Below are positions 1,260 through 32,812 of a DNA stretch of 36,627 nt, one piece after another (the first letter of the stretch is position 1; each line of letters opens with the position of its first letter). The position numbers were made by a program, and so were the translations under genes. The DNA is from Candidatus Woesearchaeota archaeon. Its GTDB lineage: Archaea > Nanobdellota > Nanobdellia > Pacearchaeales > GW2011-AR1. Location of the stretch: assembly GCA_964598515.1 (NCBI GenBank), contig CAZRBZ010000001.1:1-36627 (forward strand), written 5' to 3'. Below the pieces are notes generated by a model. The model did not search any database, was not told where the DNA came from, and saw nothing but the letters and a program-made list of their open reading frames with translations.

Positions 1260-3086
1260 ATGTTTAAGAGTAAAAAGGGACAGGTGACAATCTTTATAAT
1301 TTTGGCTATAATTGTTGTTGTGGCAGGAGTTAGTATTTACTTATTTAGGGATACAATTATTACTAATAAAATACCTGTAAGTATTGAGCCTGTGCAAATT
1401 AATTTTTTAAATTGTATTGAAAGGGGAACTTTGACAGGGATTTCTATTTTAGAATCTAAGGGAGGATATATTGAGAATCCAGATTTTGTTCCTGGTTCTG
1501 TTTATATGCCTTTTTCTTCCGAATTAAATTTTGTGGGAACTCAAATCCCATATTGGCATTATATCAGTGGAAATAATATTGAAATGGAACAAATCCCAAG
1601 TATCGATGAGATGAATAAACAATTAGAATCTTATTTGGAGAATAAATTAATGAATTGTAATTTTGAAATATATGAAAATCAGGGTTATGAAATTGAGGCA
1701 GATGTTCCAAAGGTTGATGTTAAAATAAAAAATAATAATGTTCAAATTGATGTAGACATGGATTTATCTGTTAGTTTTGAAAATGAGATTTTTTTAATGA
1801 AAGATTTTTCTGTTGAAATTGATTCTTTGTTGGGGAATTTATATGGGGATGCAAAAAAAGTTTATGAATTGGAACAAGAAAATTTATTTTTAGAGAACTA
1901 TTCTATTGATGTTTTGTATTTGTATGCTCCTGTTGATGGTGTCGAATTAAGTTGTTCTCCTTTATTTTGGAATGTTGATGAATTTTATAATAATTTTTCG
2001 GAAGCTCTTGTTGCAAATATTTATTCATTAAAAAATAAGGGAAGAGAGGATGATTATTTTGCACTTAATCTTCCTGTTGATTCGGAATTAAGTTTTGTGA
2101 CTTCAACTGAATGGCCTAAAACATTTGAGATTACTAATGCGGATAATAATATTCTTGTTGCTAAACCCGTAGGTAACCAAGAAGGATTGGGAATTTTAGG
2201 ATTTTGTTATGTTCCGTATCATTTTGTTTATAATGTGCGGTATCCGATTTTAGTACAAGTGACTTCTTTTGGAGAAACTTTTCAATTTCCAATGGCAGTA
2301 ATTATAGATAGAAATATGCCGAGAAAAGGAAAAGAGGGTTCATCTTCTGTTGGAGAAGTTTCAGACATTTGTGAATATAAAAATAATAATTTATTGATTA
2401 ATTTGTATGATTCTGATTTAAATCCTGTTGAGGGGGAAATTTCTTATGAGTGTTTTGGAGCTAACTGTCATATTGGGTTTACGGAAAATGGTCAATTAAA
2501 TGGATTTTTTCCTCAGTGTGTTAATGGAAATGTTAAAATTTCAAGTGAAGGATTTAAAGATAGTTATGTGAATACAGGAATCAATGAGGAAGAGGTCGTT
2601 GTTATTCTAGATAAAGAATATGAATTGGAAGTTGAACTTTACACAGATAACAAATTATATTCTGGAAAAGCTATTGTAAATTTCATTGGTGAGGATTCTT
2701 CTTTTTCTTTGGTCTATCCAGAACAAAAAGAAGTTATTTTAAGTGAAGGTAAATATGATCTTGAAACTTATTTTTATAAAGATTCTTCTTTGAAGTTTGA
2801 GGAGACAACTACAGAATATTGTACTGACATTCCTAGTTCTGGAATTAAGGGATTTTTTGGATTTGAAGAGGAAAAATGTTTTGAAACAGTAATTCCTGAA
2901 CAAGAAATTGATAATGTTTTAGTTGGCGGGGGAAAATCTGATTATTATTTTATAGAACAAGAATTAAAAAATTCAAATAAGTTGATATTAAGAGGGAAAG
3001 AATTAAATGTTCCTAACTCTCTTGAGGAATTAACTCAAAATTATGAATTAATTGAAAGTCAAATATTAGGGGTTGAATTTAGATGA
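1260..3086 (+). CDS. large extracellular protein with type IV pilin-like (class III) signal peptide
   Basis: The N-terminus MFKSKKGQVTIFIILAIIVVVAGVSIYLF has a basic stretch, a KGQ motif, then an uninterrupted hydrophobic helix, as in archaeal prepilin signals. The stop overlaps the start of the giant gene (ATGA at 3083-3086). Confidence 0.75.
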   Translation: MFKSKKGQVTIFIILAIIVVVAGVSIYLFRDTIITNKIPVSIEPVQINFLNCIERGTLTGISILESKGGYIENPDFVPGSVYMPFSSELNFVGTQIPYWHYISGNNIEMEQIPSIDEMNKQLESYLENKLMNCNFEIYENQGYEIEADVPKVDVKIKNNNVQIDVDMDLSVSFENEIFLMKDFSVEIDSLLGNLYGDAKKVYELEQENLFLENYSIDVLYLYAPVDGVELSCSPLFWNVDEFYNNFSEALVANIYSLKNKGREDDYFALNLPVDSELSFVTSTEWPKTFEITNADNNILVAKPVGNQEGLGILGFCYVPYHFVYNVRYPILVQVTSFGETFQFPMAVIIDRNMPRKGKEGSSSVGEVSDICEYKNNNLLINLYDSDLNPVEGEISYECFGANCHIGFTENGQLNGFFPQCVNGNVKISSEGFKDSYVNTGINEEEVVVILDKEYELEVELYTDNKLYSGKAIVNFIGEDSSFSLVYPEQKEVILSEGKYDLETYFYKDSSLKFEETTTEYCTDIPSSGIKGFFGFEEEKCFETVIPEQEIDNVLVGGGKSDYYFIEQELKNSNKLILRGKELNVPNSLEELTQNYELIESQILGVEFR

Positions 3087-6000
3087 AAGCAAATAAATTA
3101 ATTTTAGGATTGGTTTTATTAGTTGGAGTTTTAGTATTTGCTTCTGCTGCTTATACGCATTCTACTTTCCAAGCAACTTCTAGTGGAACTAGGAGTGCTT
3201 TCGAAAAGGATATGGCGGATATTAGTTTTGATTCTTCTATGTGTCAAGAAGGTCAAGATTTTATTGTTCAAATTGCGCCTTTCGGTTGTGAACCCGCTGT
3301 TGTTAGAAGTGATTTATTGGAGGAACAAGATGTTCCTGTGTTTTGTAAATTGCAAGCTGTTAAAATAAATCCTTTTATTGATATAACTGCTATTAATTCT
3401 ATTGATATTAATATTCGAGGAGCATATCCTGAAGGAGTTAAAAGTGTGGGGTTTACTCCAAGTTATGATGCTTTGGGAAAGAATAGAAAATTAAATAATT
3501 TGCAGTGGGATGAAATTGGTTATGCAACAATTGTTTTGAGACAAAATCCTAATGAAAGTTCAATGTCTGATTTTGTAACTGGAAATTTAAGTGCAACATT
3601 TAGATATGATTTGGAAAATGCTTTTGGTCTTAGGAAACATACTTTTTATCTTCCTCTAATGGAGGACAATGAGTTTGATAGGTCTCTTGGGCAATATGCT
3701 TTTTTTAATAAGATGGGTTATCTGAGGGCAGAAGATGTTACAAAAGATTCTGCTTCAATTGCAATTTATTCTGGAAGATATGAATCTCCTTTTGGTAAGA
3801 GTAGGGAAGGAGAAATAAATAGACAAAGAATTGGAATGTATAATTTACAGGTTGGACAACAAACAAATAAAATTTATTTACCTGGTTTTGATTGTTTTTC
3901 TGCTGTTCAGTTTAGATTAGAAAATATTGAATTTCAAGATACTAGAGTTCGATTTAATATCAATTCGCAAATTTTTGAAGTTAAAGAAGATGAAAATTTT
4001 CTGGAGGGTAAATGCCGTGTTACAGATATTGAAAAAACTGGTTTGAATCAAATTGTTAAAGTGTCTTGTCAAGAAGATGAAGGGAGAGATACTTTTGATT
4101 TGAGAATTAGTCCAAAAATTAAATTGGAAATTAATGGTGTTGAAGGAGAATATGCAGTTGGAGATTATTTGTTTGAAACAGATGAAAGCAAACATGCTTA
4201 TTTAGGTTTTGTTGGAAGCCAGAGTTATGAAGCTAAAGATTTAGTTGCTTATGTGGTTATTGCGGATGCAAAAATGGCCAAATTGGGAGAGAGTGAAATT
4301 TTGGCTGCAGGAAAGTTGGGAGAAGCAAATCCCAATGAAAAGAATTTACTTGAAGAGGCTAAAAAAATTACAAGAATTTCTATTAAATTTTATAAATGGC
4401 TTATGGATGGTAAACATTTTCAAAGATTAAATTATTCTGAGAGTAAAATTATTGGTGGAACAAAGGTTGAAATAATTGGTTTTGGTTCTGAAAGTGATTA
4501 TCCTGTTACTTCTAAGATTGAAGAGTATTATGGTAAGGCTTTGGACGATTATGATTATATTTTTTCTAATTATCAGGGAGAAATTTATCCAGAAGATCAA
4601 AAAATTAGTTTAGGTGAAAAATCAGCTTATGCTAAAATGCTTTTGGCAAGGGATACTTCGCAGAAAAAAGATTTGAAGTTTTTTTGTGATGAGTTTGAAA
4701 GTAGTTATCCTGATTCTGAATTAGAAAGAGATTTTTGTGAGAATTTAATTTTATTAAGTAATCAGGGCGTTTCTACTAAAGATTTGATGATTGAGGGAGA
4801 TATTAAAAGAATTTCTTTTGAGGGGGTTTATCAACCAAGTATTGAAGATTATGGTATTGTATTGTATGTCCGAGAGAAGGGGGGAAATGTAGAATCTCAT
4901 GAACTTAGAAAGGAACAGATTCTATATCTTGATGAAAGTGGACAAAATTATGTACAGTTAGTTTCAATTACTGATGAGAATACAGTTGTTTTGAATTTTA
5001 ATATTGAAGGGAAAACAACACTTGCTAGAGCACAAGATATTTTAATTTCAGGGAATCGGGGTTTGAAAAAAGAAATTTCTAAAACTTTTGGAAATTATAC
5101 TTTTACGATTCATGATATTTATTTTGAGAGAGTTGCGAAAGTTTCTGTTGAACCAAGTATAAATTATGCTGGAAGTGAGATTGATTTTAATTTTGCAGTT
5201 GGAATTGAAAAAAGATTAATTCAACTTTCTCCTGAAATGACTGAAAATGCAATTGATAAACTTGATGATACTATTGAAACTTGGGAAAGTATTTCTTCTA
5301 CTTTGGGAGATACAGTTGATGTGCTTGAAAAAACTTGTTTGGCTGTTGGAGGGTTTTTGACTTTGAAGAATTTGTTATTTAATTCTGGAGGAGAATCTAT
5401 TGCAAGACAGGAAGTTATGAGTGGAAATGGGGGGTGGTATGAAAGATGTGCAGATATGGTTGCTGTGGGAGATTATAGGTCTGAAGGAGAGTGTTTGCAA
5501 GATAAGGCAGGTAATATTGATGATGAAGTTAATTTGTTGGCGGAGATGTTGAAAAGCCAGAATGAAGAGATAAAAAATATTCAAGAAGATGAAGAAGTTA
5601 GTCAGAGTCAAGGACTTTTTGGAACTAATGTTGTGAATACAACAAAATTAGTTGAAAAGTATTTACCTAAGGTTAAAGCTTCATTGAGGAAGAGAGGAGA
5701 ATTTATTGAGGATCCTACTGGAAAAGAAAAGGGGATTAGTGTTTCTTCTTTGGAAATTATTTTGACACCTGAGTATTGGAATAAGAATTTATTTAGTTTT
5801 GATTTATTGAAAAAGATTGAGTTGTATGCAAATATATTAAATAAAGGGGGGATGGATGTTTCTCAAACAAAAAGCTATAAATCTAAATTATTTATTGTCG
5901 TTAAACAATTAGATATAAATTCTAAAAATTCTTTGGATGTTAATAATTGGGCAAGTAGCGTTGGAATAACTTCTGATTATATTGATTTTATTAAGATTGG

Positions 6001-9000
6001 AGATAATGTTCAAGAATTGCCTTATGATGATTTGGTTTTTGAAGATTTGAAATTTTCAGAGGTTAAAGAATATGATGTGAATAAACTCTCTTCGCATGTT
6101 TATGTTTTGAATCAACTTTCTCAATTAAGTGGAAGATATTCTGATATGGACGTTAAGGGATTTATTGATGATTTGTACAATAATAGTTTTTTGAGTGATG
6201 CACAATATGATGATTTTAAGGGTGAAATAGGAACATCTCATGAAGTTAGTGAGTTGAATGTTATGTTACCGATTGTAAAAAATACTCCTGTTAAACTTTT
6301 ACAGGGTTCTGATGGAAGGAAATATATTTTAATTTTAGAGAAGTCTAAAACGGATAAGTTGAATATTTTGGTAGATGGGAATTATAAACCTTTTATTTAT
6401 AATAGAGATGGAAATAGATTGTCTATAAAAAATATTTCAAAGGATGTGAGAAATATATTTTGTAAGAAATATGATTCTAGCAGTTATAAGAATTCATATA
6501 AAAATCCAGAAATTAAGTATTATGAAACTGATCCTTACAAAGGTCTTCCTTCGGTTGTTCCTTTTGATACTAAAGACGGTTGGTATGCTTATGTTGAACA
6601 AAATATTGATTTTATGGGAGAAGTGAGATCTTATGATAAATCTGCGAGAGTAAATAGTTTTTGGTTATGTAATGTAGGAAATAATGGATTAGAAGAATTT
6701 AGTAAGGGAAATACTGGAGATGATATTTGTCAATTAATTAATTTAGGAACAGGTCAACCTTATAATCAATTTTCTGGATTGAAAACAAATGAGGCTGCAA
6801 GATTAATTAATCAGGCAGTTAATGCAATTGAGCAGGCTTCTAGAGCGTATAAGGATGGAGTTAAGGTTGTTGAAATAAATAATCAGCGAATTGAAGTTGG
6901 CAGTCCTGCAATAAGTAGTGCTTTAACTAAATGTGAAGATTATATGTCTCCTAAAGATTGTAATTTATTGTTCAATGTTTGTGATCCAGTTATTTGTCCT
7001 TCGAGTAGATGTGATTTTGGTGGACAGTATCCAGTTCAAGATGTTATTCAATCTGGAATTATTGGAAGTTTACTTTTATGTTTACCTAATTATCATGAGG
7101 ATATTTACATGCCAGTTTGTTTGACTGGAGTTAAATCTGGATTGGATAGTTATTTGTCTGTTATGAAATCTTATCAAAGTTGTTTACAAGAAAGTTTGGA
7201 TACTGGGAGTACTGTTGGTATTTGTGATCAAATTAATAGTATTTATATTTGTGAATTTTTCTGGAGGCAGGCTTTACCTTTAGCTGAATTAACTTTGCCT
7301 AAAATTGTGGGAGCAATCACTGGTGAAAATACTCGTGGAGGAGGAGAATATTCTAGTTTGACTACTGCATGGGACAATGCTAAAAATTCAGTTAACTTCT
7401 TTACTGAATTTTATGCAATTAATTCTTTTAATGCATTTAAGGCAAGAAGCCAGGAAGAGATTGGTAGTGAGGTTTGTCGAAGTTTTATTTCATTTAATTA
7501 TCCTGAAGGTCAAGGGATTTTAGATAGTTTAACTATTGCAAATAGTCCCCCTCAATACAGTGGTAATTTTGAAGCCATACCTTTTACCACTACAATTGTT
7601 CCACCTGTATCACAATATAAGGTGTTTTATCATATTTATGCTGGGGAAGATCAGGGGGCTTATTATAAGGTTTATTTAAGGGGTGGAAGTGGAAGTTCAT
7701 ATTATCAAGATACTTCTTCAGGAAGAATGGTTGCTTCTGGATATATTCCTGTTGGAGAGTATGCAACTGGAACAGAAGACTTTATTGCTCCTGAAGGTTA
7801 TAAAGAATTGTGTATAGCTGTTAATAATGAAGAAGAGTGTGGATTTAAAGAAGTGTCTACTAGTTTTGCTTTTGATTATGTTCGGGACCAATCTAGGCAG
7901 TCTCAAATAGAAAATACAAATATTAAATCGCAAGATGAATGTATTTCTGGGAGTGCCAATATTTATGGTTTGTTGAATTTAAATGTTCAAGAGGGAATTG
8001 CGAACACTGTTGACCCTGAAATTTATAATCAAGGTATTGTGAGAATTTGTGCGACGGATAATCCTGGTAGTTCTGATCCTTATTTAGGTAGTGAAGATCA
8101 GAGATGGATAGATGTTGGTTATTGTGGTGATTCAAATATTAGGTGTTGGATTGATCAGGAAAGTATTGACCGAGCTTTGGAATTTCAAACTTCTGTAAAT
8201 GAATCTTTAGAAGAATTGAGTGAAAAATTTAAAGAAAATTTAGAAAATGATAAGGGTTATTTGAATCCTGAGCAATTTGCTGAAAAGATTGACAACATTA
8301 CTAAAGAGAAAAATCGAGATAAAAGATTTGATATGATTAAAGAATTGTTTGATAAAGTTTATTTGAATAATCATAAAGCTTATTTATATTATTTACGGGC
8401 AGGGATTTATGAAGAAATTGTTCATGAGTTGTTTGCTAAATTGGATACTGGGGAGAAAAAAGGAATCAGAGAAGGTAGGCCTACATATGAAAATGAATAT
8501 AAGACTGTGCTAGATATTGTAACTGCTGAAGGTTTTGAATCGGGAGAGTTTGAATTTCATGATGCAAGGGCAGCTTTAAGGATGACATCAAATCAACCAA
8601 ATGTTTGTTATAAATTTATAAATAATGGGTGGGATTATGGTTGGTATTGGACTTTGGAATGTAATAAAATTGGAAGTTATAGTTCTTATGCAGAAAAAAA
8701 TATTGATTGGATAAGTGTAAATGAACCACTTGTTAATCCTTATTCTAGAAATACATTAACCAAAACTAGTAAAGAATTTATACCCAAGTTGAAGAAAAAA
8801 AATTATTTGGAGGGAATAGATTTGTTAATGAAAAGAGCAAAATTGAATAAGGAGGGGGGAATTGTAAATTCTCTTGGGCTTGCTAAAACATTTATTACAA
8901 TTGGAGACCTTATCTTTGATCATAGGGGACGTTTTTCGGAGGGAAGTGAATCACAACCGAGACTTCAATTATATTTTCAATATAGAGGGGAAAAATGGAA

Positions 9001-10558
9001 TTATTATCTTGGGCCATATGGAGCTTCTGAGGATTCAGATTGGATGGATCTTGATGTTTTTCCTGAAGATATGGAGTTATCTCAGAATGAAACTTTATTT
9101 TTAAAAATTATGGGAGATTTGAATTTTCTTGAAGGTGCAGCTGTTTTATTTGGAGATGTTTCATTAAATGAGTTGGGTAGTTTTGTAAAACAGACTCGTA
9201 TTGGGAAATGGACTTATGCATCTGCTTTGGAGGAAATTGAAAAATTTGGTTCTGGAACTTATGAAGATATGGGAGTTAAAGAAATGGTAGATGGATTTTA
9301 TGAGGATGGTTTATTGAGTAAGGAAGATTATATTAATTTTATTGATGAAGAACAGGATATTGGTATTTTTGGGAAACAGGGAGGCTATATTTGGACTGGC
9401 ACAGAGTTTGAAGCTAGAGAAACTTGCCCTATGCCTGAAGAACCTAGTGAAGAAGTTTTAAAATTGGGTAATGCTCGTGAAAGGGTGTTAAAAATAGTTG
9501 ATGAGTTAGTTGGGAAAAAAGCTTATATTGGGGTGAAGGGTTGTTTTAGTGCTGTTGAATATGTTTATGAGAAAGCAGGAGTTACTCATAGTTGTGTTTA
9601 TTCTGATAATGAAGGTAGGAGTTATTCTATTGGGGATGGAATTAGGATAGGTATCGATAAAAAATTGGTTAAAGGAAAATGGGTAATTATTTATCAAATG
9701 GCAACATATCCCACTAGAGATTGTAGTTTGAATAAAAAAGAAGGAGAAAATTTACCTATGTCTGATAAACTTGCTGAAATTCAACCAGGAGATATTTTAA
9801 GTTATGCTTATGATGATGATGATGGACATAATGTTATTTTCATTAAGTGGATTGATTCTGATATTTTGAAAGCAGAGGTTTTTGATTGGAATGGTCCAAG
9901 AGTGAATGGAAAGAAAACTTATCGAATAACTAATGTTTTGTTACAAGATGATGAACATCCGGTTTATATGTATTGGAAACCAATTATTTTGGGACAGGCT
10001 ACTGAAGAGACAGAAGCAGATGAAGTTAAAATTTCTTCCTTAGAGATTGAAGAGGAAGAAGAGATTGTTATTCAAGATACTACTGCTCCCGAGATTGTTG
10101 TACCTGTCGAAATTAATTATGTTGAATATACTTTAGATTCTGCAATTGAAAAAGCTGGAACTTTGAAAGGAGATTATTCTAGTTCTCAAGAGAATCAAGA
10201 TTTTATGGATGCTTTGTTGGCACAAGGAATAATTAATAGAGTTGAATTTTATAAGTATAGTAATAAATGGAAAAGGTATTCCAAAACCCCTCAAATGAGT
10301 GATTTGAGAACATTATTATTACTTATTAAAAAGAATGCAGGATTAGAAAATTCTATTGAAAAGATTCCTACATATGAATTTACTGGAGATGAAAGAGCTG
10401 TTTTTAATGAAGGAGAAGTATGTAGTAATTGTGGTGATGATGAAGATTGGTATACTCTCGGTTTTGGAAATCTTTGTGATGAGGAAGAATGTTTTGTTTT
10501 GGGAATTGCTTTAGGAGAGAATTGTTGGTATGAAAATAAAGAATGTTTAAAAAAATAA
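3083..10558 (+). CDS. giant (2,491 aa) cysteine-rich secreted protein with C-terminal NlpC/P60-like module
   Basis: Uninterrupted 7.5-kb ORF. Signal peptide MKANKLILGLVLLVGVLVFASAAY. Many Cys clusters (e.g. CEDYMSPKDCNLLFNVCDPVICPSSRC). Acidic linker EIEEEEEIV. Cys-rich C-terminal tail. The 4-nt overlap with the upstream gene implies translational coupling. Confidence 0.9.
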   Translation: MKANKLILGLVLLVGVLVFASAAYTHSTFQATSSGTRSAFEKDMADISFDSSMCQEGQDFIVQIAPFGCEPAVVRSDLLEEQDVPVFCKLQAVKINPFIDITAINSIDINIRGAYPEGVKSVGFTPSYDALGKNRKLNNLQWDEIGYATIVLRQNPNESSMSDFVTGNLSATFRYDLENAFGLRKHTFYLPLMEDNEFDRSLGQYAFFNKMGYLRAEDVTKDSASIAIYSGRYESPFGKSREGEINRQRIGMYNLQVGQQTNKIYLPGFDCFSAVQFRLENIEFQDTRVRFNINSQIFEVKEDENFLEGKCRVTDIEKTGLNQIVKVSCQEDEGRDTFDLRISPKIKLEINGVEGEYAVGDYLFETDESKHAYLGFVGSQSYEAKDLVAYVVIADAKMAKLGESEILAAGKLGEANPNEKNLLEEAKKITRISIKFYKWLMDGKHFQRLNYSESKIIGGTKVEIIGFGSESDYPVTSKIEEYYGKALDDYDYIFSNYQGEIYPEDQKISLGEKSAYAKMLLARDTSQKKDLKFFCDEFESSYPDSELERDFCENLILLSNQGVSTKDLMIEGDIKRISFEGVYQPSIEDYGIVLYVREKGGNVESHELRKEQILYLDESGQNYVQLVSITDENTVVLNFNIEGKTTLARAQDILISGNRGLKKEISKTFGNYTFTIHDIYFERVAKVSVEPSINYAGSEIDFNFAVGIEKRLIQLSPEMTENAIDKLDDTIETWESISSTLGDTVDVLEKTCLAVGGFLTLKNLLFNSGGESIARQEVMSGNGGWYERCADMVAVGDYRSEGECLQDKAGNIDDEVNLLAEMLKSQNEEIKNIQEDEEVSQSQGLFGTNVVNTTKLVEKYLPKVKASLRKRGEFIEDPTGKEKGISVSSLEIILTPEYWNKNLFSFDLLKKIELYANILNKGGMDVSQTKSYKSKLFIVVKQLDINSKNSLDVNNWASSVGITSDYIDFIKIGDNVQELPYDDLVFEDLKFSEVKEYDVNKLSSHVYVLNQLSQLSGRYSDMDVKGFIDDLYNNSFLSDAQYDDFKGEIGTSHEVSELNVMLPIVKNTPVKLLQGSDGRKYILILEKSKTDKLNILVDGNYKPFIYNRDGNRLSIKNISKDVRNIFCKKYDSSSYKNSYKNPEIKYYETDPYKGLPSVVPFDTKDGWYAYVEQNIDFMGEVRSYDKSARVNSFWLCNVGNNGLEEFSKGNTGDDICQLINLGTGQPYNQFSGLKTNEAARLINQAVNAIEQASRAYKDGVKVVEINNQRIEVGSPAISSALTKCEDYMSPKDCNLLFNVCDPVICPSSRCDFGGQYPVQDVIQSGIIGSLLLCLPNYHEDIYMPVCLTGVKSGLDSYLSVMKSYQSCLQESLDTGSTVGICDQINSIYICEFFWRQALPLAELTLPKIVGAITGENTRGGGEYSSLTTAWDNAKNSVNFFTEFYAINSFNAFKARSQEEIGSEVCRSFISFNYPEGQGILDSLTIANSPPQYSGNFEAIPFTTTIVPPVSQYKVFYHIYAGEDQGAYYKVYLRGGSGSSYYQDTSSGRMVASGYIPVGEYATGTEDFIAPEGYKELCIAVNNEEECGFKEVSTSFAFDYVRDQSRQSQIENTNIKSQDECISGSANIYGLLNLNVQEGIANTVDPEIYNQGIVRICATDNPGSSDPYLGSEDQRWIDVGYCGDSNIRCWIDQESIDRALEFQTSVNESLEELSEKFKENLENDKGYLNPEQFAEKIDNITKEKNRDKRFDMIKELFDKVYLNNHKAYLYYLRAGIYEEIVHELFAKLDTGEKKGIREGRPTYENEYKTVLDIVTAEGFESGEFEFHDARAALRMTSNQPNVCYKFINNGWDYGWYWTLECNKIGSYSSYAEKNIDWISVNEPLVNPYSRNTLTKTSKEFIPKLKKKNYLEGIDLLMKRAKLNKEGGIVNSLGLAKTFITIGDLIFDHRGRFSEGSESQPRLQLYFQYRGEKWNYYLGPYGASEDSDWMDLDVFPEDMELSQNETLFLKIMGDLNFLEGAAVLFGDVSLNELGSFVKQTRIGKWTYASALEEIEKFGSGTYEDMGVKEMVDGFYEDGLLSKEDYINFIDEEQDIGIFGKQGGYIWTGTEFEARETCPMPEEPSEEVLKLGNARERVLKIVDELVGKKAYIGVKGCFSAVEYVYEKAGVTHSCVYSDNEGRSYSIGDGIRIGIDKKLVKGKWVIIYQMATYPTRDCSLNKKEGENLPMSDKLAEIQPGDILSYAYDDDDGHNVIFIKWIDSDILKAEVFDWNGPRVNGKKTYRITNVLLQDDEHPVYMYWKPIILGQATEETEADEVKISSLEIEEEEEIVIQDTTAPEIVVPVEINYVEYTLDSAIEKAGTLKGDYSSSQENQDFMDALLAQGIINRVEFYKYSNKWKRYSKTPQMSDLRTLLLLIKKNAGLENSIEKIPTYEFTGDERAVFNEGEVCSNCGDDEDWYTLGFGNLCDEEECFVLGIALGENCWYENKECLKK
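9500..9960 (+). other. NlpC/P60- or CHAP-like papain-fold hydrolase module inside the giant protein
   Basis: The pattern GVKGCFSAVEYVYEKAGV ... EIQPGDILSYAYDDDDGHNVIFIKW matches the NlpC/P60 layout (G-x-C-S/F-G nucleophile helix, then PGD-hydrophobic ... H-V/I-hydrophobic). Cys codon at 9542-9544, His codon at 9827-9829. Confidence 0.5.
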
Positions 10559-11374
10559 TTATTTCTTTATGGGAATATTAATATATTGTCCAACCATTAA
10601 TTTTGTATTTTTTGCATTATTAAGTTTCATAATTTTATTTGCATCTTTTCCTGTTCCATAAATTTCTTCTGCAATTTTCCAATAAGTGTCACCAGATTTT
10701 ATTTTATATTGTTGTGTTTGTATCATATTTTTTGTAATAGTTTTATTTGGAGTTGATTGTTCTAAAATCCATTCATAAATATCGCCTTGTTTTACAACTA
10801 CGTTTTTTTCATTTCCAATTCTTGGTTTTTCCAAAGAATATTTAAAATTTTCAGTGTCTACAAAATAGAAGTCTAATTTTCCAGGAGTAGAATTTTCTCT
10901 TTCTGCTATTGCAAAAGTTTTATTTTCTAAAGAGATTGTTGCTATGTAAAATTCTTGCCCTTTTTCTGTTGTAATTTTTTTATAAATTATGTCTCCTTTA
11001 GATTTGTCGAATTTAGAATGTTTTGGAATTTCTTTGTAGATTGTTAAAATCAAATCATTCATTTTAATTTTTTTTGGAATAAATTCATCTTTTGCTTCTC
11101 TTGTTGGTATTGGGTTCCCATATTCAAATACGTCGGAAGTATATTTTGATTTTCTTATTTCGAATCCTAAAGGGTTTGAATTATCGTCTGCTTCTTTAAA
11201 ATTATATTCTTCTTTAAATATTCCAACATCCAATTTTTTATAAGGTATATCATTTTGGGTTATTTGTTCTATTTTAATTCCTTTATATAGATGATTCTCT
11301 GCAAAAGGTCTTTTTGTTGCACAACTTGAAGTTAAAATTCCAGTTGTTAATAGATAAATTAATCCTTTTTTCAT
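10559..11374 (-). CDS. lipoprotein with C-terminal LysM domain
   Basis: N-terminus MKKGLIYLLTTGILTSSC has a lipobox-like LTSSC. The C-terminus YKIKSGDTYWKIAEEIYGTGKDANKIMKLNNAKNTKLMVGQYINIP fits the LysM consensus. Its stop codon directly abuts the stop of the giant gene. Confidence 0.8.
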   Translation of the reverse strand: MKKGLIYLLTTGILTSSCATKRPFAENHLYKGIKIEQITQNDIPYKKLDVGIFKEEYNFKEADDNSNPLGFEIRKSKYTSDVFEYGNPIPTREAKDEFIPKKIKMNDLILTIYKEIPKHSKFDKSKGDIIYKKITTEKGQEFYIATISLENKTFAIAERENSTPGKLDFYFVDTENFKYSLEKPRIGNEKNVVVKQGDIYEWILEQSTPNKTITKNMIQTQQYKIKSGDTYWKIAEEIYGTGKDANKIMKLNNAKNTKLMVGQYINIPIKK

Positions 11375-11672: not shown

Positions 11673-11681
11673 AAAAATAAA

Positions 11682-11764
11682 TGCAAGGGACAGGATTTGA
11701 ACCTGCGCAAGTATACACTACTGGAGCCTAAATCCAGCCCGTTTGACCACTCCGGCACCCCTGC
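11682..11764 (-). tRNA. tRNA-Leu (anticodon UAG), type II with long variable arm
   Basis: Hand fold: acceptor GCAGGGG/CCCTTGC plus discriminator A. Anticodon arm CTGGA-TTTAGGC-TCCAG. T-arm GCAGG-TTCAAAT-CCTGT. 83 nt. Confidence 0.9.
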
Positions 11765-11818
11765 ATTGTTTTGTGGTCAAATGGTTTACTGTTGAGTTAA
11801 AGTGACTGCGTCGACTTT

Positions 11819-19253: not shown

Positions 19254-19331
19254 ATAAATAGATTGTTAATGATGTTTAAAAGGTTTTTTGGAACAAAAAT
19301 TTATTAAAACCTCTTGTCTTTTATTTTTTGT

Positions 19332-21791
19332 ATGGTAGAAATTAATTTTAAAGTTATTGAAGAAAAATGGCAAAAAAAATGGGAAGAAGAATCTACTTTT
19401 GTTGCTAATGATAATTCTGAGAAGCCAAGATATTATGTTCTTGAAATGTTTCCGTATCCTTCGGGTTCTGGGCTTCACATGGGGCATGCTTGGAATTATA
19501 CAATTGGAGATATTTTGGCGAGATTTAAAATTATGAATGGATTCAATGTTCTTCATCCAATGGGTTATGATGCTTTAGGACTTCCTGCTGAAAATGCAGC
19601 AATTAAAGATGGAATTCATCCTGGAGATTATACTGAAGCTGCAATCAAAAATTATATTAGACAACAAAAATCTTTAGGTTTAACTTATGATTGGTCTAGA
19701 ATTTTGAAGACTTCTTCTCCTGATTATTATCGTTGGGATCAGTGGATTTTTTTAAAGATGTTTGAGAAAGGCTTAGCTTATCAGAAAGAGTCTAGTGTTA
19801 ATTGGTGTCCTAGTTGTGAAACAGTTCTTGCAAATGAGCAAGCACAAAATGGAACTTGTGATAGATGTGATTCTAAGGTTGAGATTAAACATTTGAAACA
19901 GTGGTTTTTGAAAATTACTGATTATGCTGATGAGCTTTATGAGAATTTGGATAATATGAAAGGTTGGCCTGAGAGAACTCGTGCCATGCAAAAACATTGG
20001 ATTGGAAAGAGTTATGGGACTGAAATTGATTTTGAGATAAATGGTGAAAAATGGCCTGTTTTTACAACTCGTCCGGATACAATTTTTGGAGTTACTTTTA
20101 TGGTTATTTCTGCACAACATAAAAAATTAAGGGATTTAGTTACTGAAGAGCAAAAGGGAGAAGTTGAAAAGTTTTTGAAGAAGTTGGGTTCTGTTTCTGA
20201 AAAGGAGGTGGCAGATATGGAAAAGGAAGGGGTTTTTACTGGTTCGTATGCTGTGAATCCTGTCAATGGGGAGAAAGTTCTGGTTTATGTAGGAAATTTT
20301 GTCGTTGCTGATTATGGTTCTGGAATGGTTATGGCTGTTCCTGCACATGATAAACGAGATTTTGAATTTGCAAAGAAGTATGGTATTAAGATTAAACCTG
20401 TAATTAATCCAACTGATTTTGATTTTGGAAAAATTTTAGAAGAAGCTTATACTGAAAAGGGGAGTTTGATGAATTCTGGAGATTTTAATAATTTAGATAG
20501 TGATGAAGCTAAAAAGAAAATTACTAAATGGTTGGAGGAGAAGGGTGTTGGTAGAAAGACTTTGAATTTTAGATTAAGGGATTGGGGAATTTCTCGTCAG
20601 AGATATTGGGGGGCTCCGATACCAATTATTCATTGTGAAAAGTGTGGGAATGTTCCAGTTCCTGAAAAAGATTTACCTGTGATTTTGCCGAAAGAAGTTA
20701 AATTTGGCGAAGGTAATCCTCTGGAAACCAATAAAGATTGGATTAAAGTCAAATGTCCGAAATGTGGGGGTGAAGCTAAACGAGAAACTGATACTATGGA
20801 TACTTTTGTGAATTCTTCTTGGTATTTTATGAGATATTGTGATCCAAATAATGATTCAAGAATTTTTGATAAAGAGAAAGTTAAATTATGGTGCCCAGTT
20901 GATAGTTATATTGGTGGTGCGGAACATGCATGTATGCATTTGATTTATTCTAGATTTTATACTAAATTTTTGAAAGATTTGGGATTAATAGATTTTGATG
21001 AACCTGCTAAGACTTTGTTTCATCAAGGTATGCTTATGGGTGAGGATGGAGTGAAGATGAGCAAGTCTAAAGGAAATGTGATTTTACCTGAAACAGTTTC
21101 CGATAAATATGGAATTGATACTGCAAGATTTTTTTTATCTAGTTTGGCTTCACCTGACAAGGATATTGATTGGTCTGAAAAAGGGATTGTTGGTTCGTTA
21201 AGATTTGTAAAAAAGATTTTTGATTTTGTTGAAAATTTTGAATTGAAGGAAGATTCGGAAAAATTAATTATTAAATTGAATAATGTGATTAAAAATGTTA
21301 CAGATTATTATTCTAATTTTCAATATAGGAAGGCAACGATTGAACTGAGGGAATTATTTGATTTGATTATTGGGGTTGGTTGTTCTAAAAAAAGTTTTGA
21401 AATTGCTTTGAAGTTATTAAATCCTATTTGTCCACATATTACTGAGGAGCTTTGGGAGAAAATTGGCAATTCTGGATTTATTTCAGTTTCAGATTGGCCG
21501 AAGTTTGATGAGAATAAATTGAAAATACATAAGAAGGAAATTGATTTAAACGCAAAAGTTCTTGAGAATGTTGAAGTGATGATTAAGAAGTTAGAAGAGA
21601 AGGGCAATGAAATTAAAAAAGTTTATTTGTATGTAATTCCGTTTGAACTTTCGAAGTATAATGTTAAGATTTTGGAAAAAGAGTGGGGAAAAAAAGTGGC
21701 AGTTTATTCTGTTAAGGATGAGAAGAAGTATGATCCACAAGGAAAAAGTAAGAAGGCGAGGCCTGGACAACCTGGTGTTTATTTTGAGTGA
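19332..21791 (+). CDS. leuS: leucyl-tRNA synthetase, bacterial-type architecture
   Basis: YVLEMFPYPSGSGLHMGH (HIGH region) and KMSKSKGN. About 820 aa. The N-terminus VIEEKWQKKWEE is typical. The ATG at 19332 is preferred over the TTG at 19314. Confidence 0.95.
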   Translation: MVEINFKVIEEKWQKKWEEESTFVANDNSEKPRYYVLEMFPYPSGSGLHMGHAWNYTIGDILARFKIMNGFNVLHPMGYDALGLPAENAAIKDGIHPGDYTEAAIKNYIRQQKSLGLTYDWSRILKTSSPDYYRWDQWIFLKMFEKGLAYQKESSVNWCPSCETVLANEQAQNGTCDRCDSKVEIKHLKQWFLKITDYADELYENLDNMKGWPERTRAMQKHWIGKSYGTEIDFEINGEKWPVFTTRPDTIFGVTFMVISAQHKKLRDLVTEEQKGEVEKFLKKLGSVSEKEVADMEKEGVFTGSYAVNPVNGEKVLVYVGNFVVADYGSGMVMAVPAHDKRDFEFAKKYGIKIKPVINPTDFDFGKILEEAYTEKGSLMNSGDFNNLDSDEAKKKITKWLEEKGVGRKTLNFRLRDWGISRQRYWGAPIPIIHCEKCGNVPVPEKDLPVILPKEVKFGEGNPLETNKDWIKVKCPKCGGEAKRETDTMDTFVNSSWYFMRYCDPNNDSRIFDKEKVKLWCPVDSYIGGAEHACMHLIYSRFYTKFLKDLGLIDFDEPAKTLFHQGMLMGEDGVKMSKSKGNVILPETVSDKYGIDTARFFLSSLASPDKDIDWSEKGIVGSLRFVKKIFDFVENFELKEDSEKLIIKLNNVIKNVTDYYSNFQYRKATIELRELFDLIIGVGCSKKSFEIALKLLNPICPHITEELWEKIGNSGFISVSDWPKFDENKLKIHKKEIDLNAKVLENVEVMIKKLEEKGNEIKKVYLYVIPFELSKYNVKILEKEWGKKVAVYSVKDEKKYDPQGKSKKARPGQPGVYFE

Positions 21792-22521: not shown

Positions 22522-22864
22522 GGGCTTTTTGTTTTTAATTTAAAAAATTAATTAATTAAAATTTCCAGATAGGCTTTTATTACATCAAGTTCAGATTGAT
22601 ATTAAATTTGTATCTCCCTAAAGTAAACATCAATTAACTTTAGATTTTTGAAATATTTGGTGAGTTTTAATAATTTTTTTGAGAAAGAGGTGTAAATAAT
22701 TTAACTTTTTAACGAAAAAATTTTTTTGCTTGTATATAATAGTTAAAATTTTGTGGGTGCAATAATTATAATAAAATAATTTGAAAACTTTTTTAGAAGA
22801 TTTGGGGATTGGTTTAAGAGGTTATTTAGTTAGTTTTATTAATTGTTTTTTATTAATTGTTTTA

Positions 22865-23944
22865 ATGGAAGAAAAATTTTTAATTGAGAAAACAGGGGGA
22901 GTGAAAAAACATTATTCTAAATATTGGGTCATTGGTTTTTTTGCTTTTGCTTTGGGTTTTTTTACAATTTATGCTTTATTAAATTTTACTGGAGAAATTG
23001 AACAAGAATTAATTTGTGGTGATGGAACTCCTTTTAATAGCTGTTCTTTGAATGAACCTTATTATTGTAAAGATAATGTTTTAATAGAAAATATTGAGGA
23101 ATGTGGATGTCCTAAGGTTTTAAGAAATTTAGGAAATGCTTGTTTTTCTTCTAATTATGTTGAAGAAAAAGATATCAGTTTAAAATATATTTTTGAGAAA
23201 GAAAAAAAATTTATTGATTTGCCAATTTATGAGGGAGTTATTAATTATCTTAATACATTACCTCGTTCACTTATTACAATTAATGGGGAAAATTATAGTA
23301 GGAGGGATTTTAAATTAATGAAAATAGATAATGAGTTGCAAAGAGAAGCTTTGATGCCATTAGTTATCAAAATTCAAAATCTTGCTCCTTGGTCTAAAGA
23401 TTTACAAGCTCAAATTGCAATAAGTTTAGTTCAAAATATTCCTTATGGTGAACCTGATTATGTTGATGTTTTTGGTGGAAGATTTGAGGTTAGGCTTTCT
23501 AGATATCCTTACCAAACTTTGGAAGAACATTTTGGATCTTGTGAATGCAAATCAGAGTTACTTGTATTTTTATTGAGAGAATTAGGATTTGAGGTTGGTT
23601 TATTTTATTATCAAGAAGAAAATCATGAGGCAGTGGGAATTAAATGTCCTGAAAAATATTCTTTGAATAATACAGGATATTGTTTTGTTGAAACAACTTT
23701 GCCTGCTCCTATTTCATATGATCGTGGAAGATATCAAGGTCCAAAAGGAAGTGCAGTTTTAGGAAATTATACGGAATTTTTATTTATTTCTGAGGGGATT
23801 AGTTTAAGTGACAATTTAAATGATTATTCTGATGCTAATGTTTTGGGAAAATTAGTTGATAAAGTTGATGAAAAAGGTTATCTGAATTATTTTGAGAAAA
23901 AAAGATTTGATAATCTTAGAGAAAAATATGGTCTTATTTATTGA
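22865..23944 (+). CDS. membrane-anchored transglutaminase-like cysteine protease-fold protein
   Basis: TM YWVIGFFAFALGFFTIYALLNF, a Cys-rich ectodomain, then FGSCECKSELLVFLLRELGFEV ... ENHEAVGIKC ... GYCFVETT (a Cys/His/acidic pattern like the transglutaminase core). An upstream TTG at 22781 is an alternative start. Confidence 0.6.
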   Translation: MEEKFLIEKTGGVKKHYSKYWVIGFFAFALGFFTIYALLNFTGEIEQELICGDGTPFNSCSLNEPYYCKDNVLIENIEECGCPKVLRNLGNACFSSNYVEEKDISLKYIFEKEKKFIDLPIYEGVINYLNTLPRSLITINGENYSRRDFKLMKIDNELQREALMPLVIKIQNLAPWSKDLQAQIAISLVQNIPYGEPDYVDVFGGRFEVRLSRYPYQTLEEHFGSCECKSELLVFLLRELGFEVGLFYYQEENHEAVGIKCPEKYSLNNTGYCFVETTLPAPISYDRGRYQGPKGSAVLGNYTEFLFISEGISLSDNLNDYSDANVLGKLVDKVDEKGYLNYFEKKRFDNLREKYGLIY

Positions 23945-23991: not shown

Positions 23992-24612
23992 ATGGATATT
24001 GTTAAATTGGTTGAATTGGTTGATGAGAATTTGAATATTAAACCTACTTTTTTTGAATTAAAAGAATTTTATAAATTTTCTTCTAATTCTGTTTTATATT
24101 ATTATTCTTTTAATCAGGATCAAGTTAATCTTGGGGAAAATTTTAAATATTTTCTTAATCCTAAAAAAGGAGATGAAAAAATTTTTATGGATTCTCCTAG
24201 TTTTCATATGAATTCCTTTAATTATTATGCTCTCATTGTTGAAGAAATGATAAATAATTTGAATAAAGATCAGAGTAAAAATTTTAAGAATTTTAAGAAT
24301 TTACAAGAAAGTTATTCTTTTTTTGAATATGAATCTAAATATTTATTTGGGAAGAGAAATATTAATGGAGAGGATTATTCTGGTTCTGAAAATGAAATAT
24401 TAATGAAATATAATTCTTGTAAAAAATTTATTTTATCTATGGCAATAATACATCAAAATTTTTTAAAAACAAAAATATATTCAAAGTATTTTGAAGAAGT
24501 TGAGGATGAAATTAAAAGTTTAAAAAAAGTAGGCAATAAAATTAGAAATATTAATAAATGTAATAATTATTTATTGAAATTGTATGGATTGGAAAATTTT
24601 ATTCTAAAATAG
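23992..24612 (+). CDS. hypothetical protein
   Basis: About 206-aa N/K/F-rich ORF. Its 3' end overlaps the alaS 3' end by 14 nt (convergent). No family recognised. Confidence 0.4.
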   Translation: MDIVKLVELVDENLNIKPTFFELKEFYKFSSNSVLYYYSFNQDQVNLGENFKYFLNPKKGDEKIFMDSPSFHMNSFNYYALIVEEMINNLNKDQSKNFKNFKNLQESYSFFEYESKYLFGKRNINGEDYSGSENEILMKYNSCKKFILSMAIIHQNFLKTKIYSKYFEEVEDEIKSLKKVGNKIRNINKCNNYLLKLYGLENFILK

Positions 24613-30758: not shown

Positions 30759-31499
30759 ATGAAGATAGTTGTTGTTCCTGGAATTAATGGACTTGGAGTT
30801 ACTCAGGGAGTTGAAAAAAGTTATTTAGAAGTTTTGGAAAGGCAAGATTTTGAAAAGATTAATTTGAATAATGGGAATATTGAAGAGCAATTGGAGCAGA
30901 TTGTTGGTGGAACAAAGAGATATTTTAATGGGGGGAAAGTTTTGTTTTTTGGAGGAGATCATTCAATTAGTTATGGTTTGGTTTTGAATTTTTTTGAGAA
31001 GTATAAAAATGGAAAGTTGATTGTTTTTGATGCACATCCTGATTTAATGGAACAAATGCCAGAACCTGGCCATGAAGAATGGTTGCGAGCGGTTGTTGAG
31101 AAAACAGGAATTGATGGGAAAAGGATTTTGATTGTGGGAGTTAGGAAGAATTCTGAGAATGTTGATAAAAGAGAGATTGATTATGCAAAAGAAAAAGGAA
31201 TTAAGATAATTTATTCTGATGAATTTGATTCTAGAAGAGAGGAAATTTTAGAATTTATTGGTTCAGGAGAATTATATTGTTCGTTTGATATTGATGTTTT
31301 TGATAGTTCTATTATTGCTTCTACTGGTTATCCTGAGGAAAATGGGTTGAATGAGGAGCAAATGTTTAGGTTGTTGGAAGAAATTGGAGAGAAAATTAAT
31401 TATTTTGATTTGGTTGAGGTTAATTTAGAGAAGGGTAGTGAAGAGGAGAAGAAAAGGACGAGGGATGTTGTGGAGAAGGTTTTGAGCGAGTTTGGTTAA
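30759..31499 (+). CDS. arginase-fold ureohydrolase (agmatinase/arginase family), short form
   Basis: Metal-binding motifs FFGGDHSISYG, VFDAHPDL and SFDIDVFD in canonical order. 246 aa. Confidence 0.8.
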   Translation: MKIVVVPGINGLGVTQGVEKSYLEVLERQDFEKINLNNGNIEEQLEQIVGGTKRYFNGGKVLFFGGDHSISYGLVLNFFEKYKNGKLIVFDAHPDLMEQMPEPGHEEWLRAVVEKTGIDGKRILIVGVRKNSENVDKREIDYAKEKGIKIIYSDEFDSRREEILEFIGSGELYCSFDIDVFDSSIIASTGYPEENGLNEEQMFRLLEEIGEKINYFDLVEVNLEKGSEEEKKRTRDVVEKVLSEFG

Positions 31500-31835
31500 C
31501 ATCGCGATTAAACAACCCCTAGGTCACGAATGGAATGTAATGACCTCATGAGTTTTTTCTGCAAGAAAAAATTTGGGAAAATCCTTGCAGGATTTTCTGT
31601 TTAACTGTTGTTGCTTGACCCGAACGAAGTGAGAGTCTGCAAGGCGTGGCAAGAAATTATGAAATAATTTCGCAAATTTTTAATTTTTCTTTTCAGGTTA
31701 GGGAGGACGATGGGACAACCAATATATTGGGGAGATAAGCCCGCTTTTTGTTTCTTTTTTCTGCTTGAAGAGTACCTCTTTTGGGCAAAAAGAAAATGGG
31801 GATTTCCTTTTTGCCTTCTTTTTCTAAAAGAAATT

Positions 31836-32219: not shown

Positions 32220-32249
32220 AAAAGATTGTGTCGGGGGCTTTGGCGAGAC

Positions 32250-32689: not shown

Positions 32690-32812
32690 CAAAAACTTTA
32701 AAAGTCCCTAATTCTAAATATTTTTATGAAAGTGAAAGATTTAGCTATTCCAATTCTTAGGAAATAAGTTAGTCAGTACTTTTTCATTAAATTCTAATTG
32801 TATTAATTTAAA

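Follow-up and report, generated by a model that had tools for sequence, protein, structure and literature searches.

A large protein with an SLT domain is said to have been first noted in AR20, by Castelle in 2015. To our knowledge, few uncultured archaea are as abundant as the Pacearchaeota and Woesearchaeota, in which such proteins have since been described, and we know of no established food source or partner for them. In its pertinent passages, Castelle et al. 2021 (PMC8204110) describes the family fam00969 and states that it had been noticed earlier in three genomes. The relevant part of Vigneron et al. 2022 (PMC9723730) speaks of a 'large lytic murein transglycosylase', and the bacterial-wall idea is repeated in passages of an oxygen-deficient zone (ODZ) study (PMC10936187) and of a chimney study (PMC11537232), which in one place describes some Pacearchaeota as having no such transglycosylase ('absent'). 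Here we analysed a stretch of 36,627 nt from Candidatus Woesearchaeota archaeon (GCA_964598515.1, contig CAZRBZ010000001.1, positions 1–36,627, forward strand; hereafter the window), which encodes a secreted protein of 2,491 amino acids (aa), the giant, directly downstream of a 608-aa partner protein. We found that the giant is an SLT-less, NlpC/P60-tipped form of this known, uncharacterised family, and that it belongs to a newly defined conserved operon. The central idea of an action on bacterial walls has already been published.

A first-pass annotation of the window had not recognised most of the giant as any described family. This does not hold, as SLT-bearing members were reported by Castelle et al. 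2015/2021 (fam00969) and by Vigneron et al. 2022. Compared by description and not by member lists, the giant resembles the fam00969 type in lineage, in size class (to ~3,000 aa and beyond) and in proposed role (to bind or degrade bacterial walls). Unlike fam00969, it is without an SLT domain (no match at E ≤ 0.1) and carries a Cys-His-Asp module that is NlpC/P60/CHAP-like. It matches P0008, P0014 and P0029 at E=0 and has its full ~1,780-aa scaffold in common with them; NCBI lists the three as 'transglycosylase SLT domain-containing protein [archaeon]', and P0008 comes from the same locus. An 'absent' transglycosylase is exactly what an SLT-based search gives for a copy like the one in the window. 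In the pertinent parts of the literature we found no description of the scaffold-and-tip architecture, the 608-aa partner, the small gene for a protein with two transmembrane segments (2-TM) or the fixed locus that we report here.

The window DNA has ~29% G+C. Its genes are archaeal (TFIIB, ribosomal protein S8e, LSM protein, tRNA-splicing endonuclease and TFE-alpha) and further include aminoacyl-tRNA synthetases and deoxyhypusine synthase; the window is chromosomal DNA of a DPANN archaeon of the Pace-/Woesearchaeota type. Across the sampled genomes of this type, the 2-TM protein, the membrane-held partner and the Sec-exported giant form a vertically inherited three-gene envelope operon. In the window it consists of the following features.

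876–1094, + strand: small 2-TM membrane protein, 72 aa; first gene of the conserved cassette
1260–3086, + strand: partner protein, 608 aa, with a class III signal/anchor and a ~575-aa extracellular domain with 10 conserved Cys
1260–1346, + strand: predicted class III-type signal of the partner, MFKSKKG/QVTIFIILAIIVVVAGVSIYLF (the slash marks the site; motif conservation)
3083–3086, + strand: ATGA stop/start overlap, translational coupling (sequence read directly)
3083–10558, + strand: giant Sec-secreted protein, 2,491 aa (homologues)
3083–3148, + strand: Sec signal peptide of the giant, aa 1–22, ...FASA/AY (hydropathy, conserved site, inspection)
3152–5932, + strand: N-terminal scaffold of the giant, aa ~24–950, 11 invariant Cys (coverage, invariant columns)
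6381–8422, + strand: conserved core of the giant, aa ~1100–1780, 17 invariant Cys (coverage, identity)
6932–7492, + strand: most conserved, Cys-rich segment of the giant, aa 1284–1470, CEDYMSPKDCNLLFNVCDPVICPSSRCDFGG followed by predicted long helices (dense invariant columns)
8480–10555, + strand: variable C-terminal region of the giant, aa ~1800–2491 (coverage drop)
9449–9985, + strand: putative divergent NlpC/P60/CHAP-like module of the giant, aa ~2123–2301 (conservation, AF2, Foldseek)
9542–9544, 9827–9829 and 9884–9886, + strand: codons of the putative triad C2154, H2249 and D2268, respectively
10421–10546, + strand: C-terminal 6-Cys tail of the giant, aa 2447–2488 (Cys positions)

The three open reading frames drawn by the first-pass annotation (1260–3086, 3083–10558 and 10559–11374) proved exact in coordinates and length. 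Positions 3078–3089 read ...TTT AGA TGA AAG..., where the TGA stop of the partner overlaps the ATG of the giant, and this direct reading bears out the ATGA overlap proposed at 3083–3086. The giant gene had been put at about 20% of the window and measures 20.4%; the chance of 2,491 codons without a stop is ~1e-98 at the base composition of the window, and hundreds of homologues bear out the reading frame. The partner and the giant make up a genuine translationally coupled surface module, whose display on the cell we infer.

Two described systems resemble this arrangement in part. In the pertinent passages on SlaA/SlaB of Sulfolobales (PMC10903991), a large Sec-exported protein and a smaller membrane-anchored protein are likewise encoded next to each other in one operon, a likeness of logic only. 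Our searches found no sequence or fold similarity to SlaA/SlaB, and our cassette differs in having an N-terminal class III-type helix anchor in place of a C-terminal transmembrane segment, the reverse gene order and enzymatic C-termini. A comparison can also be drawn with phages and conjugative elements. Phage tape-measure proteins, tail lysins and PrgK-type proteins of Gram-positive conjugation systems carry an SLT or CHAP hydrolase on a large structural protein and open the wall only where contact is made. The principle is all that is shared: no homology and no PHROG match was detected, and the giant is chromosomal and archaeal.

The giant family, its scaffold and its tips

The giant is no orphan but part of a large, closed family, whose extent we assessed in several searches. 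A word-indexed search gave 287 matches to the giant, the best 120 of which all had E=0 and lengths of 1.7–3.6 kaa; the named homologues among these 120 were Pacearchaeota, Nanoarchaeota or 'archaeon', and Woesearchaeota also occur among the named homologues of the family. An exhaustive HMMER search with a core profile found 1,113 representative clusters, 974 of them at E ≤ 1e-30. The best 150 of the 1,113 matches span the whole or most of the core profile in full-length proteins, typically at residues ~1,050–1,750, and include no distant core relatives of other architecture; the search pointed to no function. When one genome per GTDB species was scanned, relatives were present in 485 stretches. 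None was found in 2.9 million IMG/VR viral contigs, and a viral or mobile-element origin was rejected on this ground. Orthologue loci encode proteins of 1,710 to 3,188 aa.

BLAST coverage by 119 homologues divides the giant into a conserved scaffold of ~1,780 aa and lineage-variable C-terminal modules. Most of aa 51–950 and 1101–1750 is covered by 97–118 homologues; aa 1–50, which hold the signal peptide, are covered by 92. At a variable linker (aa 951–1100) the coverage dips to 47–80. It is 110–118 over most of the core, 95 at aa 1751–1800 and 3–38 beyond aa 1800. The signal reads MKANKLILGLVLLVGVLVFASA/AY, and its VSA/ASA cleavage site is kept in the family consensus. A single hydrophobic stretch beyond the signal peptide lies internally (aa 1927–1945) and, at the threshold used, the C-terminus has none; hydropathy agrees with the Sec-type signal and the lack of a C-terminal anchor that had been noted before. 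The description of the giant as Cys-rich stands in part. Its clusters are real, 28 scaffold Cys being invariant in an alignment of 40 sequences, but the term overstates a content of 43 Cys (1.7%).

The median identity of related proteins to those of the window is 91% for TFIIB, 72% for L44e, 70% for S8e and 63% for S3Ae, against 52% for the giant core, 46% for the partner and 37% for the N-terminal region of the giant. By this measure the surface genes evolve faster than the housekeeping genes, yet they are clearly constrained.

We then searched for similarity to known proteins and folds. The N-terminal 1,120 aa and the core of the giant had no sequence match in Pfam, NCBIfam, PHROG or the PDB. 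The PDB was searched with single sequences and with profiles of the C-terminal module, the core, the N-terminal 1,120 aa and the partner, all without a match, and a ChpXY match (E 0.068) was dismissed as noise. Similarity to S-layer proteins was absent from the Pfam and PDB searches. Profile and structure comparison therewith left the scaffold without a family, whereas the hydrolase-like fold that the first-pass annotation had suspected is supported in the C-terminal module. An AlphaFold2 (AF2) model of aa 1120–1790 was poor (pLDDT 59, pTM 0.31), with pLDDT <50 in the most conserved segment (aa 1284–1470, CDPVICPSSRCDFGG..., long helices). Foldseek retrieved only generic Ig/FnIII/CARDB-like sandwiches for this model, at aa ~1490–1590, and the core is thus predicted to contain an Ig-like beta-sandwich. 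A membrane-inserting or pore-forming hairpin in aa 1284–1470 was considered and rejected, since the segment has the hydropathy and hydrophobic moments of an ordinary globular helical domain.

By eye, a candidate short motif, F/V-x-D-x-(L/F)-x3-G-(L/I)-(L/I)-S-x3-Y-x2-F, was noticed three times in the giant, at aa ~1012–1040, ~2058–2085 and ~2383–2410 (window ~6116–6202, ~9254–9337 and ~10229–10312). It adjoins variable or inserted regions, was missed by a regular expression and might serve for linking or docking as a small element.

The C-terminal regions were surveyed in two ways, by the precomputed Pfam domains of the best 120 homologues and by a scan of the post-core regions of 69 genome-derived orthologues. 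SLT was present in 30 of the 120 homologues, in which YkuD, DUF1615, VanY, Amidase_3, trypsin-like, Hint, ankyrin and leucine-rich repeat (LRR) domains also occurred. In the post-core regions, SLT was found in 15/69, VanY, DUF1615, DUF2272, glucosaminidase, lysozyme-like and ankyrin domains in one each, and NLPC_P60, below its threshold, in three. Two homologues show such domains downstream of the core: P0083 has SLT, DUF1615 and Amidase_3 at residues 2255–3603, and P0036 has YkuD at 2741–2902. The same-locus orthologue in GCA_018653105.1 carries SLT in the place of the window's peptidase module, and in three giants no more than 50 residues follow the core. With the ankyrin and LRR repeats as exceptions, the recognisable C-terminal modules are enzymatic and predicted to act on bacterial murein. 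These data show a family with a conserved scaffold and exchangeable, mostly murein-directed tips. The chemistries of SLT, amidase_3, VanY and YkuD need N-acetylmuramic acid (MurNAc) or D-amino-acid stems, groups that pseudomurein lacks; the target is therefore bacterial murein, living or dead.

Polymorphic toxins (Rhs, CDI, LXG) similarly combine a long conserved N-terminal part with varying C-terminal domains, and one homologue of the giant has a Hint domain (P0093). The targets of the giant differ from theirs in being cell walls and not cytoplasmic molecules. We rejected a polymorphic-toxin system because no immunity gene lies downstream, where tRNA-Leu and TFIIB, or a lipoprotein gene, are found, and because the C-terminus is kept among the close relatives L007, L008 and P0002.

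In the window giant, the tip is of another kind. Residues ~2091–2320 are common to 45/119 homologues, and in an alignment of 35 sequences C2154 and H2249 are invariant and D2268 is conserved in at least 90%. AF2 modelled the module well (mean pLDDT 89.4, pTM 0.82), and in the model a helix begins with the Cys while two neighbouring strands (E157–168 and E173–178) bear the His and Asp, a papain-like arrangement. Foldseek placed the CHAP endolysins LysIME-EF1 (6ist) and PlyPy (5udm) and the NlpC/P60 protein Spr/MepS of E. coli (2k1g, 8xup) at ranks 1–2 and 4–6 against the PDB, and CHAP, NlpC/P60 and endolysin proteins first against BFVD. The window module had no Pfam match at E ≤ 0.1, SLT and NLPC_P60 included. 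Homologous modules came closer: NLPC_P60 reached 20.6 bits in L030 (gathering score 23; E 4.4e-4) and E 0.0065 in L022, and Amidase_6 (E 0.015) and NLPC_P60 appeared, both sub-threshold, in 4/35 modules.

The module shares with the NlpC/P60 superfamily (NLPC_P60, CHAP, Amidase_6) the Cys at a helix, the His and Asp on strands and the fusion to other murein hydrolase modules. It differs in scoring below the curated thresholds, in TM-scores of only 0.36–0.40 and in a ~60-aa insert between the Cys helix and the His strand, within a total of ~180 aa. Because the triad fits and the fold matches, though weak, point the same way, but the Pfam scores are sub-threshold, we consider it, by modelled fold and putative triad, a divergent member of the NlpC/P60/CHAP superfamily outside any curated family. 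The conserved Cys, His and Asp, the AF2 topology and the CHAP and NlpC/P60 fold matches support the papain-fold module that had been supposed near the C-terminus. Residues 1790–2090 and 2320–2491 of the giant lie outside the assigned modules, and the 6-Cys tail is common to only L007, L008 and L044. An identity of the module as peptidase C71, a pseudomurein endoisopeptidase, was also considered and would have implied methanogen hosts. It was rejected, with no such Pfam match at E ≤ 0.1 and with the sister modules SLT, amidase_3, VanY and YkuD being specific for bacterial murein.

Elsewhere in the window, the gene at 22781–23944 (+) encodes a membrane protein of 387 aa, part of which is rich in Cys (CGDGTPFNSCSLNEPYYCKDN...ECGCP). 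Its sequence 'GSCECKSELLVFLLRELGF ... NHEAVGI' resembles a transglutaminase-like or papain-like Cys-His core, and the protein, which had no Pfam or PHROG match, could be a second surface cysteine hydrolase.

The partner, the small membrane protein and the locus

At least 1,767 homologues of the partner were found, full-length proteins of 600–640 aa that are ~50% identical and of which none is annotated. The partner itself had no Pfam, NCBIfam, PHROG or PDB match. Its N-terminus, KKG/QVTIFIILAII..., follows the archaeal class III pattern of a charged start, a [KR][GAS] site and a hydrophobic helix. In 98/120 homologues the motif [KR][GAS]Q[VILM][TS][VILM]F is present. The family has an invariant Q8 and F12, T10 is kept in at least 90%, and all ten Cys are conserved. 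Motif conservation thereby favours the prepilin-like class III signal that had been proposed for this protein, with a predicted cleavage site. Curated class III and pilin models in Pfam and NCBIfam did not match the partner (E ≤ 0.1 or E ≤ 1), and Beta_helix matches in 5/42 partners (E ≥ 0.003) were dismissed as noise.

At least 36 of 50 loci encode, immediately before the partner, a homologue of the 2-TM protein with a length of 59–103 aa (mostly 63–78). These proteins have the motif (G/A)(L/I)YF(I/L)N...PE...W...GG, and the window copy (876–1094) had no Pfam match above threshold.

Synteny was assessed in a sample of 80 loci from species-representative genomes. In 59/59 loci with enough flank, the partner gene immediately precedes the giant gene in the same orientation, and the identical 4-nt stop/start overlap recurred in 42/65 related loci. 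Dozens of species share one order: S3Ae and L44e, both pointing away from the cassette; the 2-TM, partner and giant genes, all in the forward direction; then tRNA-Leu(TAG), TFIIB and S8e, the latter two pointing back towards the cassette, LSM and RNase Z. Downstream of the giant, tRNA-Leu was present in 19 of the 22 related loci checked, 18 with a TAG anticodon, at a distance of ~100–300 bp, or up to ~1 kb where a lipoprotein gene intervenes. In the window, the cassette is flanked as follows.

16–831, + strand: protein with a signal peptide and a C-terminal transmembrane segment, 271 aa (inspection); neighbour, outside the conserved cassette
10559–11374, − strand: lipobox-like protein with a C-terminal LysM domain, 271 aa, convergent on the giant
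10571–10708, − strand: LysM domain, aa 223–268 (Pfam PF01476)
11681–11765, − strand: tRNA-Leu(TAG), conserved downstream boundary of the locus (ARAGORN, Rfam)

The first-pass annotation had joined the partner, the giant and the convergent LysM gene into a trio. The convergence itself is as described, the TAA stop of the giant (10556–10558) abutting the TTA that is the reverse-complement stop of the LysM gene, with 0 intergenic bases. A conserved trio was not borne out: the N-terminal domain of the lipoprotein is encoded downstream in 8/53 loci, and LysM is present only in the closest relatives. By synteny, the conserved third member of the cassette is the 2-TM protein at 876–1094 and not the LysM protein. 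Inspection confirmed the two surface or membrane proteins upstream of the partner, at 16–831 (signal and C-terminal transmembrane segment) and at 876–1094 (two transmembrane segments). The former is specific to the window organism: tblastn found no counterpart in the 80 related loci.

Some further features of the locus were observed. A ~90-aa basic protein, p91 (MRRIKFEKGKQREF...), is encoded between L44e and the 2-TM gene in 15/80 loci, including L001 (3614–3889), L007 and L009; its position is taken in the window by the 271-aa surface protein (16–831). Where a lipoprotein gene is present, it always lies between the giant stop and tRNA-Leu, which may be a recurrent spot of insertion or loss. 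Three loci with the full archaeal cassette, TFIIB and S8e (L036, L043 and L077) were deposited as Bacillota bacterium, 'bacterium' and Parcubacteria group bacterium. Their contigs are probably mis-binned; physical co-association of these archaea with bacteria is possible.

The LysM protein and other window genes

The LysM domain of the 271-aa convergent protein is real: at aa 223–268 it reaches 38.9 bits with PF01476, whose gathering score is 20.9 (E 8.5e-10), and NCBIfam and PHROG endolysin LysM models also matched. Its designation as a lipoprotein is less secure, as the lipobox is non-canonical (ILTSS-C18). Tested against [LVI][ASTVI][GAS]C, it has T at position −3; related N-domain proteins carry L-F-G-C, L-S-G-C or L-T-G-C. 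Only 4 homologues of the LysM protein were found in a database of 5.8 billion proteins, and tblastn detected it only in L007 and L008 (core ~80% identical); it is also present in L001, the locus of P0002. A local iterative HMM showed that the N-terminal ~200-aa domain, which follows the lipobox-like signal, is a fast-evolving family. Members are found across the diversity in those 8 of 53 loci (~15%), always convergent and between the giant and tRNA-Leu, and most are without LysM. In 27/53 loci the gap between the giant and TFIIB is <500 bp, and therefore no gene can sit there. By this distribution, the LysM protein is a lineage-specific accessory.

Several other genes of the window drew our attention. 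A leucyl-tRNA synthetase (LeuRS) of 825 aa (19314–21791, +) matches PF13603, the LeuRS editing domain typical of the bacterial type, at E 1.5e-64, which suggests a bacterial-type LeuRS in an archaeon. The alanyl-tRNA synthetase (AlaRS; 24599–26344, −) has only 581 aa, with the catalytic domain and SAD; this is short for an archaeal AlaRS, and the gene may be truncated or split. Genes for an arginase-family (agmatinase-like) protein, deoxyhypusine synthase and an Orn/Arg decarboxylase, the last two overlapping by 4 nt (33802–33805), lie at 30759–34836 (+) in what looks like a compact polyamine and hypusine module. A DisA-type diadenylate cyclase with DAC and DisA-linker domains (35419–36519, +) implies cyclic di-AMP (c-di-AMP) signalling with the bacterial DisA architecture.

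Possible roles of the cassette

The first-pass annotation had proposed an apparatus for attachment or for breaching of cell walls. This is plausible, host attachment and enzyme activity both being read from the predicted modules. The reading that we favour, a giant scaffold tethered by the partner that presents a murein-cutting tip to a bacterium, seems to us evenly poised between right and wrong. The partner would be held in the membrane by its prepilin-type N-terminal helix. As a stalk or a pilin-like subunit, it would tether the giant, once the signal is cleaved off, to the surface of the archaeon, with about as many copies of the one protein as of the other. The scaffold would project the C-terminal enzyme outward, where it might cut peptide stems or cross-links in the peptidoglycan of a contacted bacterium. 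Local opening of the wall could result in attachment, in access to the bacterial membrane or in the release of muropeptides and amino acids. In the window lineage, the membrane-anchored LysM lipoprotein would add a peptidoglycan-binding grip near the archaeal membrane.

Several points weigh against this reading. About 40% of homologues are without a recognised murein-active module, and a few giants stop right after the core; murein hydrolysis itself is therefore excluded as the conserved function. The partner and the scaffold, which makes up the conserved 70% of the giant, have no recognisable fold or family (core AF2 pLDDT 59). For the peptidase module, the fold matches had probabilities of 0.96–1.0 and yet were weak (E 1e-3 to 2e-2, TM-score 0.2–0.4), and no Pfam model reached its threshold on the module or its homologues (best 20.6 against 23 bits). 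The reading further depends on an interaction of partner and giant, on surface retention and on prepilin processing, each of which we infer. The family is experimentally untouched, and we know of no demonstrated bacterial host of these archaea.

If the partner and the giant were the main components of an S-layer-like envelope, an anchored stalk with an outer canopy that recalls SlaB/SlaA in its logic, the hydrolases could be add-ons that scavenge peptidoglycan debris for amino acids and sugars and do not serve to attack a host. Such a role would fit a clade-wide occurrence (485 species genomes), a fixed housekeeping locus, translational coupling, the Ig-like beta-sandwich predicted in the core and a scaffold that is kept even without a recognisable enzyme, some giants ending after the core. 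A passage of the chimney study (PMC11537232) proposes that Pacearchaeota scavenge the peptidoglycan of dead bacteria. However, known S-layer proteins in Pfam and the PDB show no similarity, N-glycosylation sequons are sparse (10 in 2,491 aa), and arrays of SLT, amidase and DUF1615 as well as ankyrin or LRR modules look more like equipment for interaction or attack. We consider this explanation unlikely. The strictness of the partner N-terminus raises another one, namely that the partner is a true prepilin-peptidase substrate, in or capping a type IV pilus-like filament that carries the giant away from the cell as an enzyme-adhesin. The [KR][GAS]/Q-x-T-x-F motif with its invariant Q8 and F12 exceeds what a simple anchor needs, and Q at +1 is reportedly typical of EppA-type archaeal pilins, a point ascribed to Szabo et al. 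in 2007. There is also a precedent in the Candidate Phyla Radiation (CPR), as type IV pili mediate episymbiosis in Saccharibacteria according to the pertinent parts of PMC9894109 and PMC11623550. Yet the partner matched no class III or pilin model in Pfam, 608 aa is far above the size of structural pilins, and the window and the conserved flanks hold no gene for a pilus ATPase, a platform protein or a prepilin peptidase (PibD/EppA/FlaK-type). Taken with the fact that archaeal non-pilin surface proteins, for example sugar-binding proteins of Sulfolobus, use class III signals too, this makes a filament distinctly improbable in our view.

A cleavable Sec signal and the lack of an anchor on the giant would suit a freely released bacteriolytic weapon for competition, with no role in attachment and with the partner as an export or maturation factor. 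According to passages of PMC12352652, archaeal peptidoglycan hydrolases can kill bacteria when secreted, and such homologues are prominent in Nanoarchaeota. A diffusible lysin would have no need, however, of a ~1,780-aa non-enzymatic scaffold, an obligate coupled membrane partner or a 2-TM protein. The tested archaeal peptidoglycan hydrolases that we know of are small modular enzymes, a diffusible 280-kDa enzyme would presumably be costly for a very small genome, and we rate the chance of a free weapon as low indeed. To a role in remodelling a murein-like sacculus of the archaeon itself we give next to no credence. YkuD and VanY remodel walls and do not only lyse them, and a LysM lipoprotein on the archaeal membrane would adjoin the cell's own wall. 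But archaea are not known to make murein; what is known from them is pseudomurein, and that in Methanobacteria and Methanopyri only (relevant parts of PMC12352652; general knowledge). No mur or penicillin-binding protein (PBP) genes are present in the window or the flanks, and a module type that differs between species is odd for a housekeeping autolysin.

Beyond the tethered scaffold with a murein-cutting tip, a bolder version can be tentatively put forward, which we take to be somewhat unlikely. The 2-TM protein, the partner and the scaffold might together be a previously unrecognised surface machine of the Pacearchaeota and Woesearchaeota, in which the core, including the invariant Cys-rich helical segment (aa 1284–1470), docks onto and penetrates the bacterial envelope and the tips are tuned to the chemistry of the host wall. 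If true, most members of this very large uncultured clade would live as cross-domain episymbionts or predators of bacteria, and the type of host wall could be predicted in genomes from the type of C-terminal module.

The earlier genomic hint of bacterial partners was only the SLT domain in some large proteins. Our analysis shows SLT to be one among many exchangeable murein-active tips of a single clade-wide scaffold. SLT-less copies such as the window's carry other predicted wall-cutting enzymes and escape annotation. At its fixed locus, the scaffold comes with the pilin-signal partner in all informative loci and with the small membrane protein in most, and this conserved locus can serve as a marker for following these archaea. 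The ~180-aa peptidase domain, the LysM domain, the three-protein complex and the relation of tip type to co-occurring bacteria offer handles for the study of how these archaea may live with bacteria.

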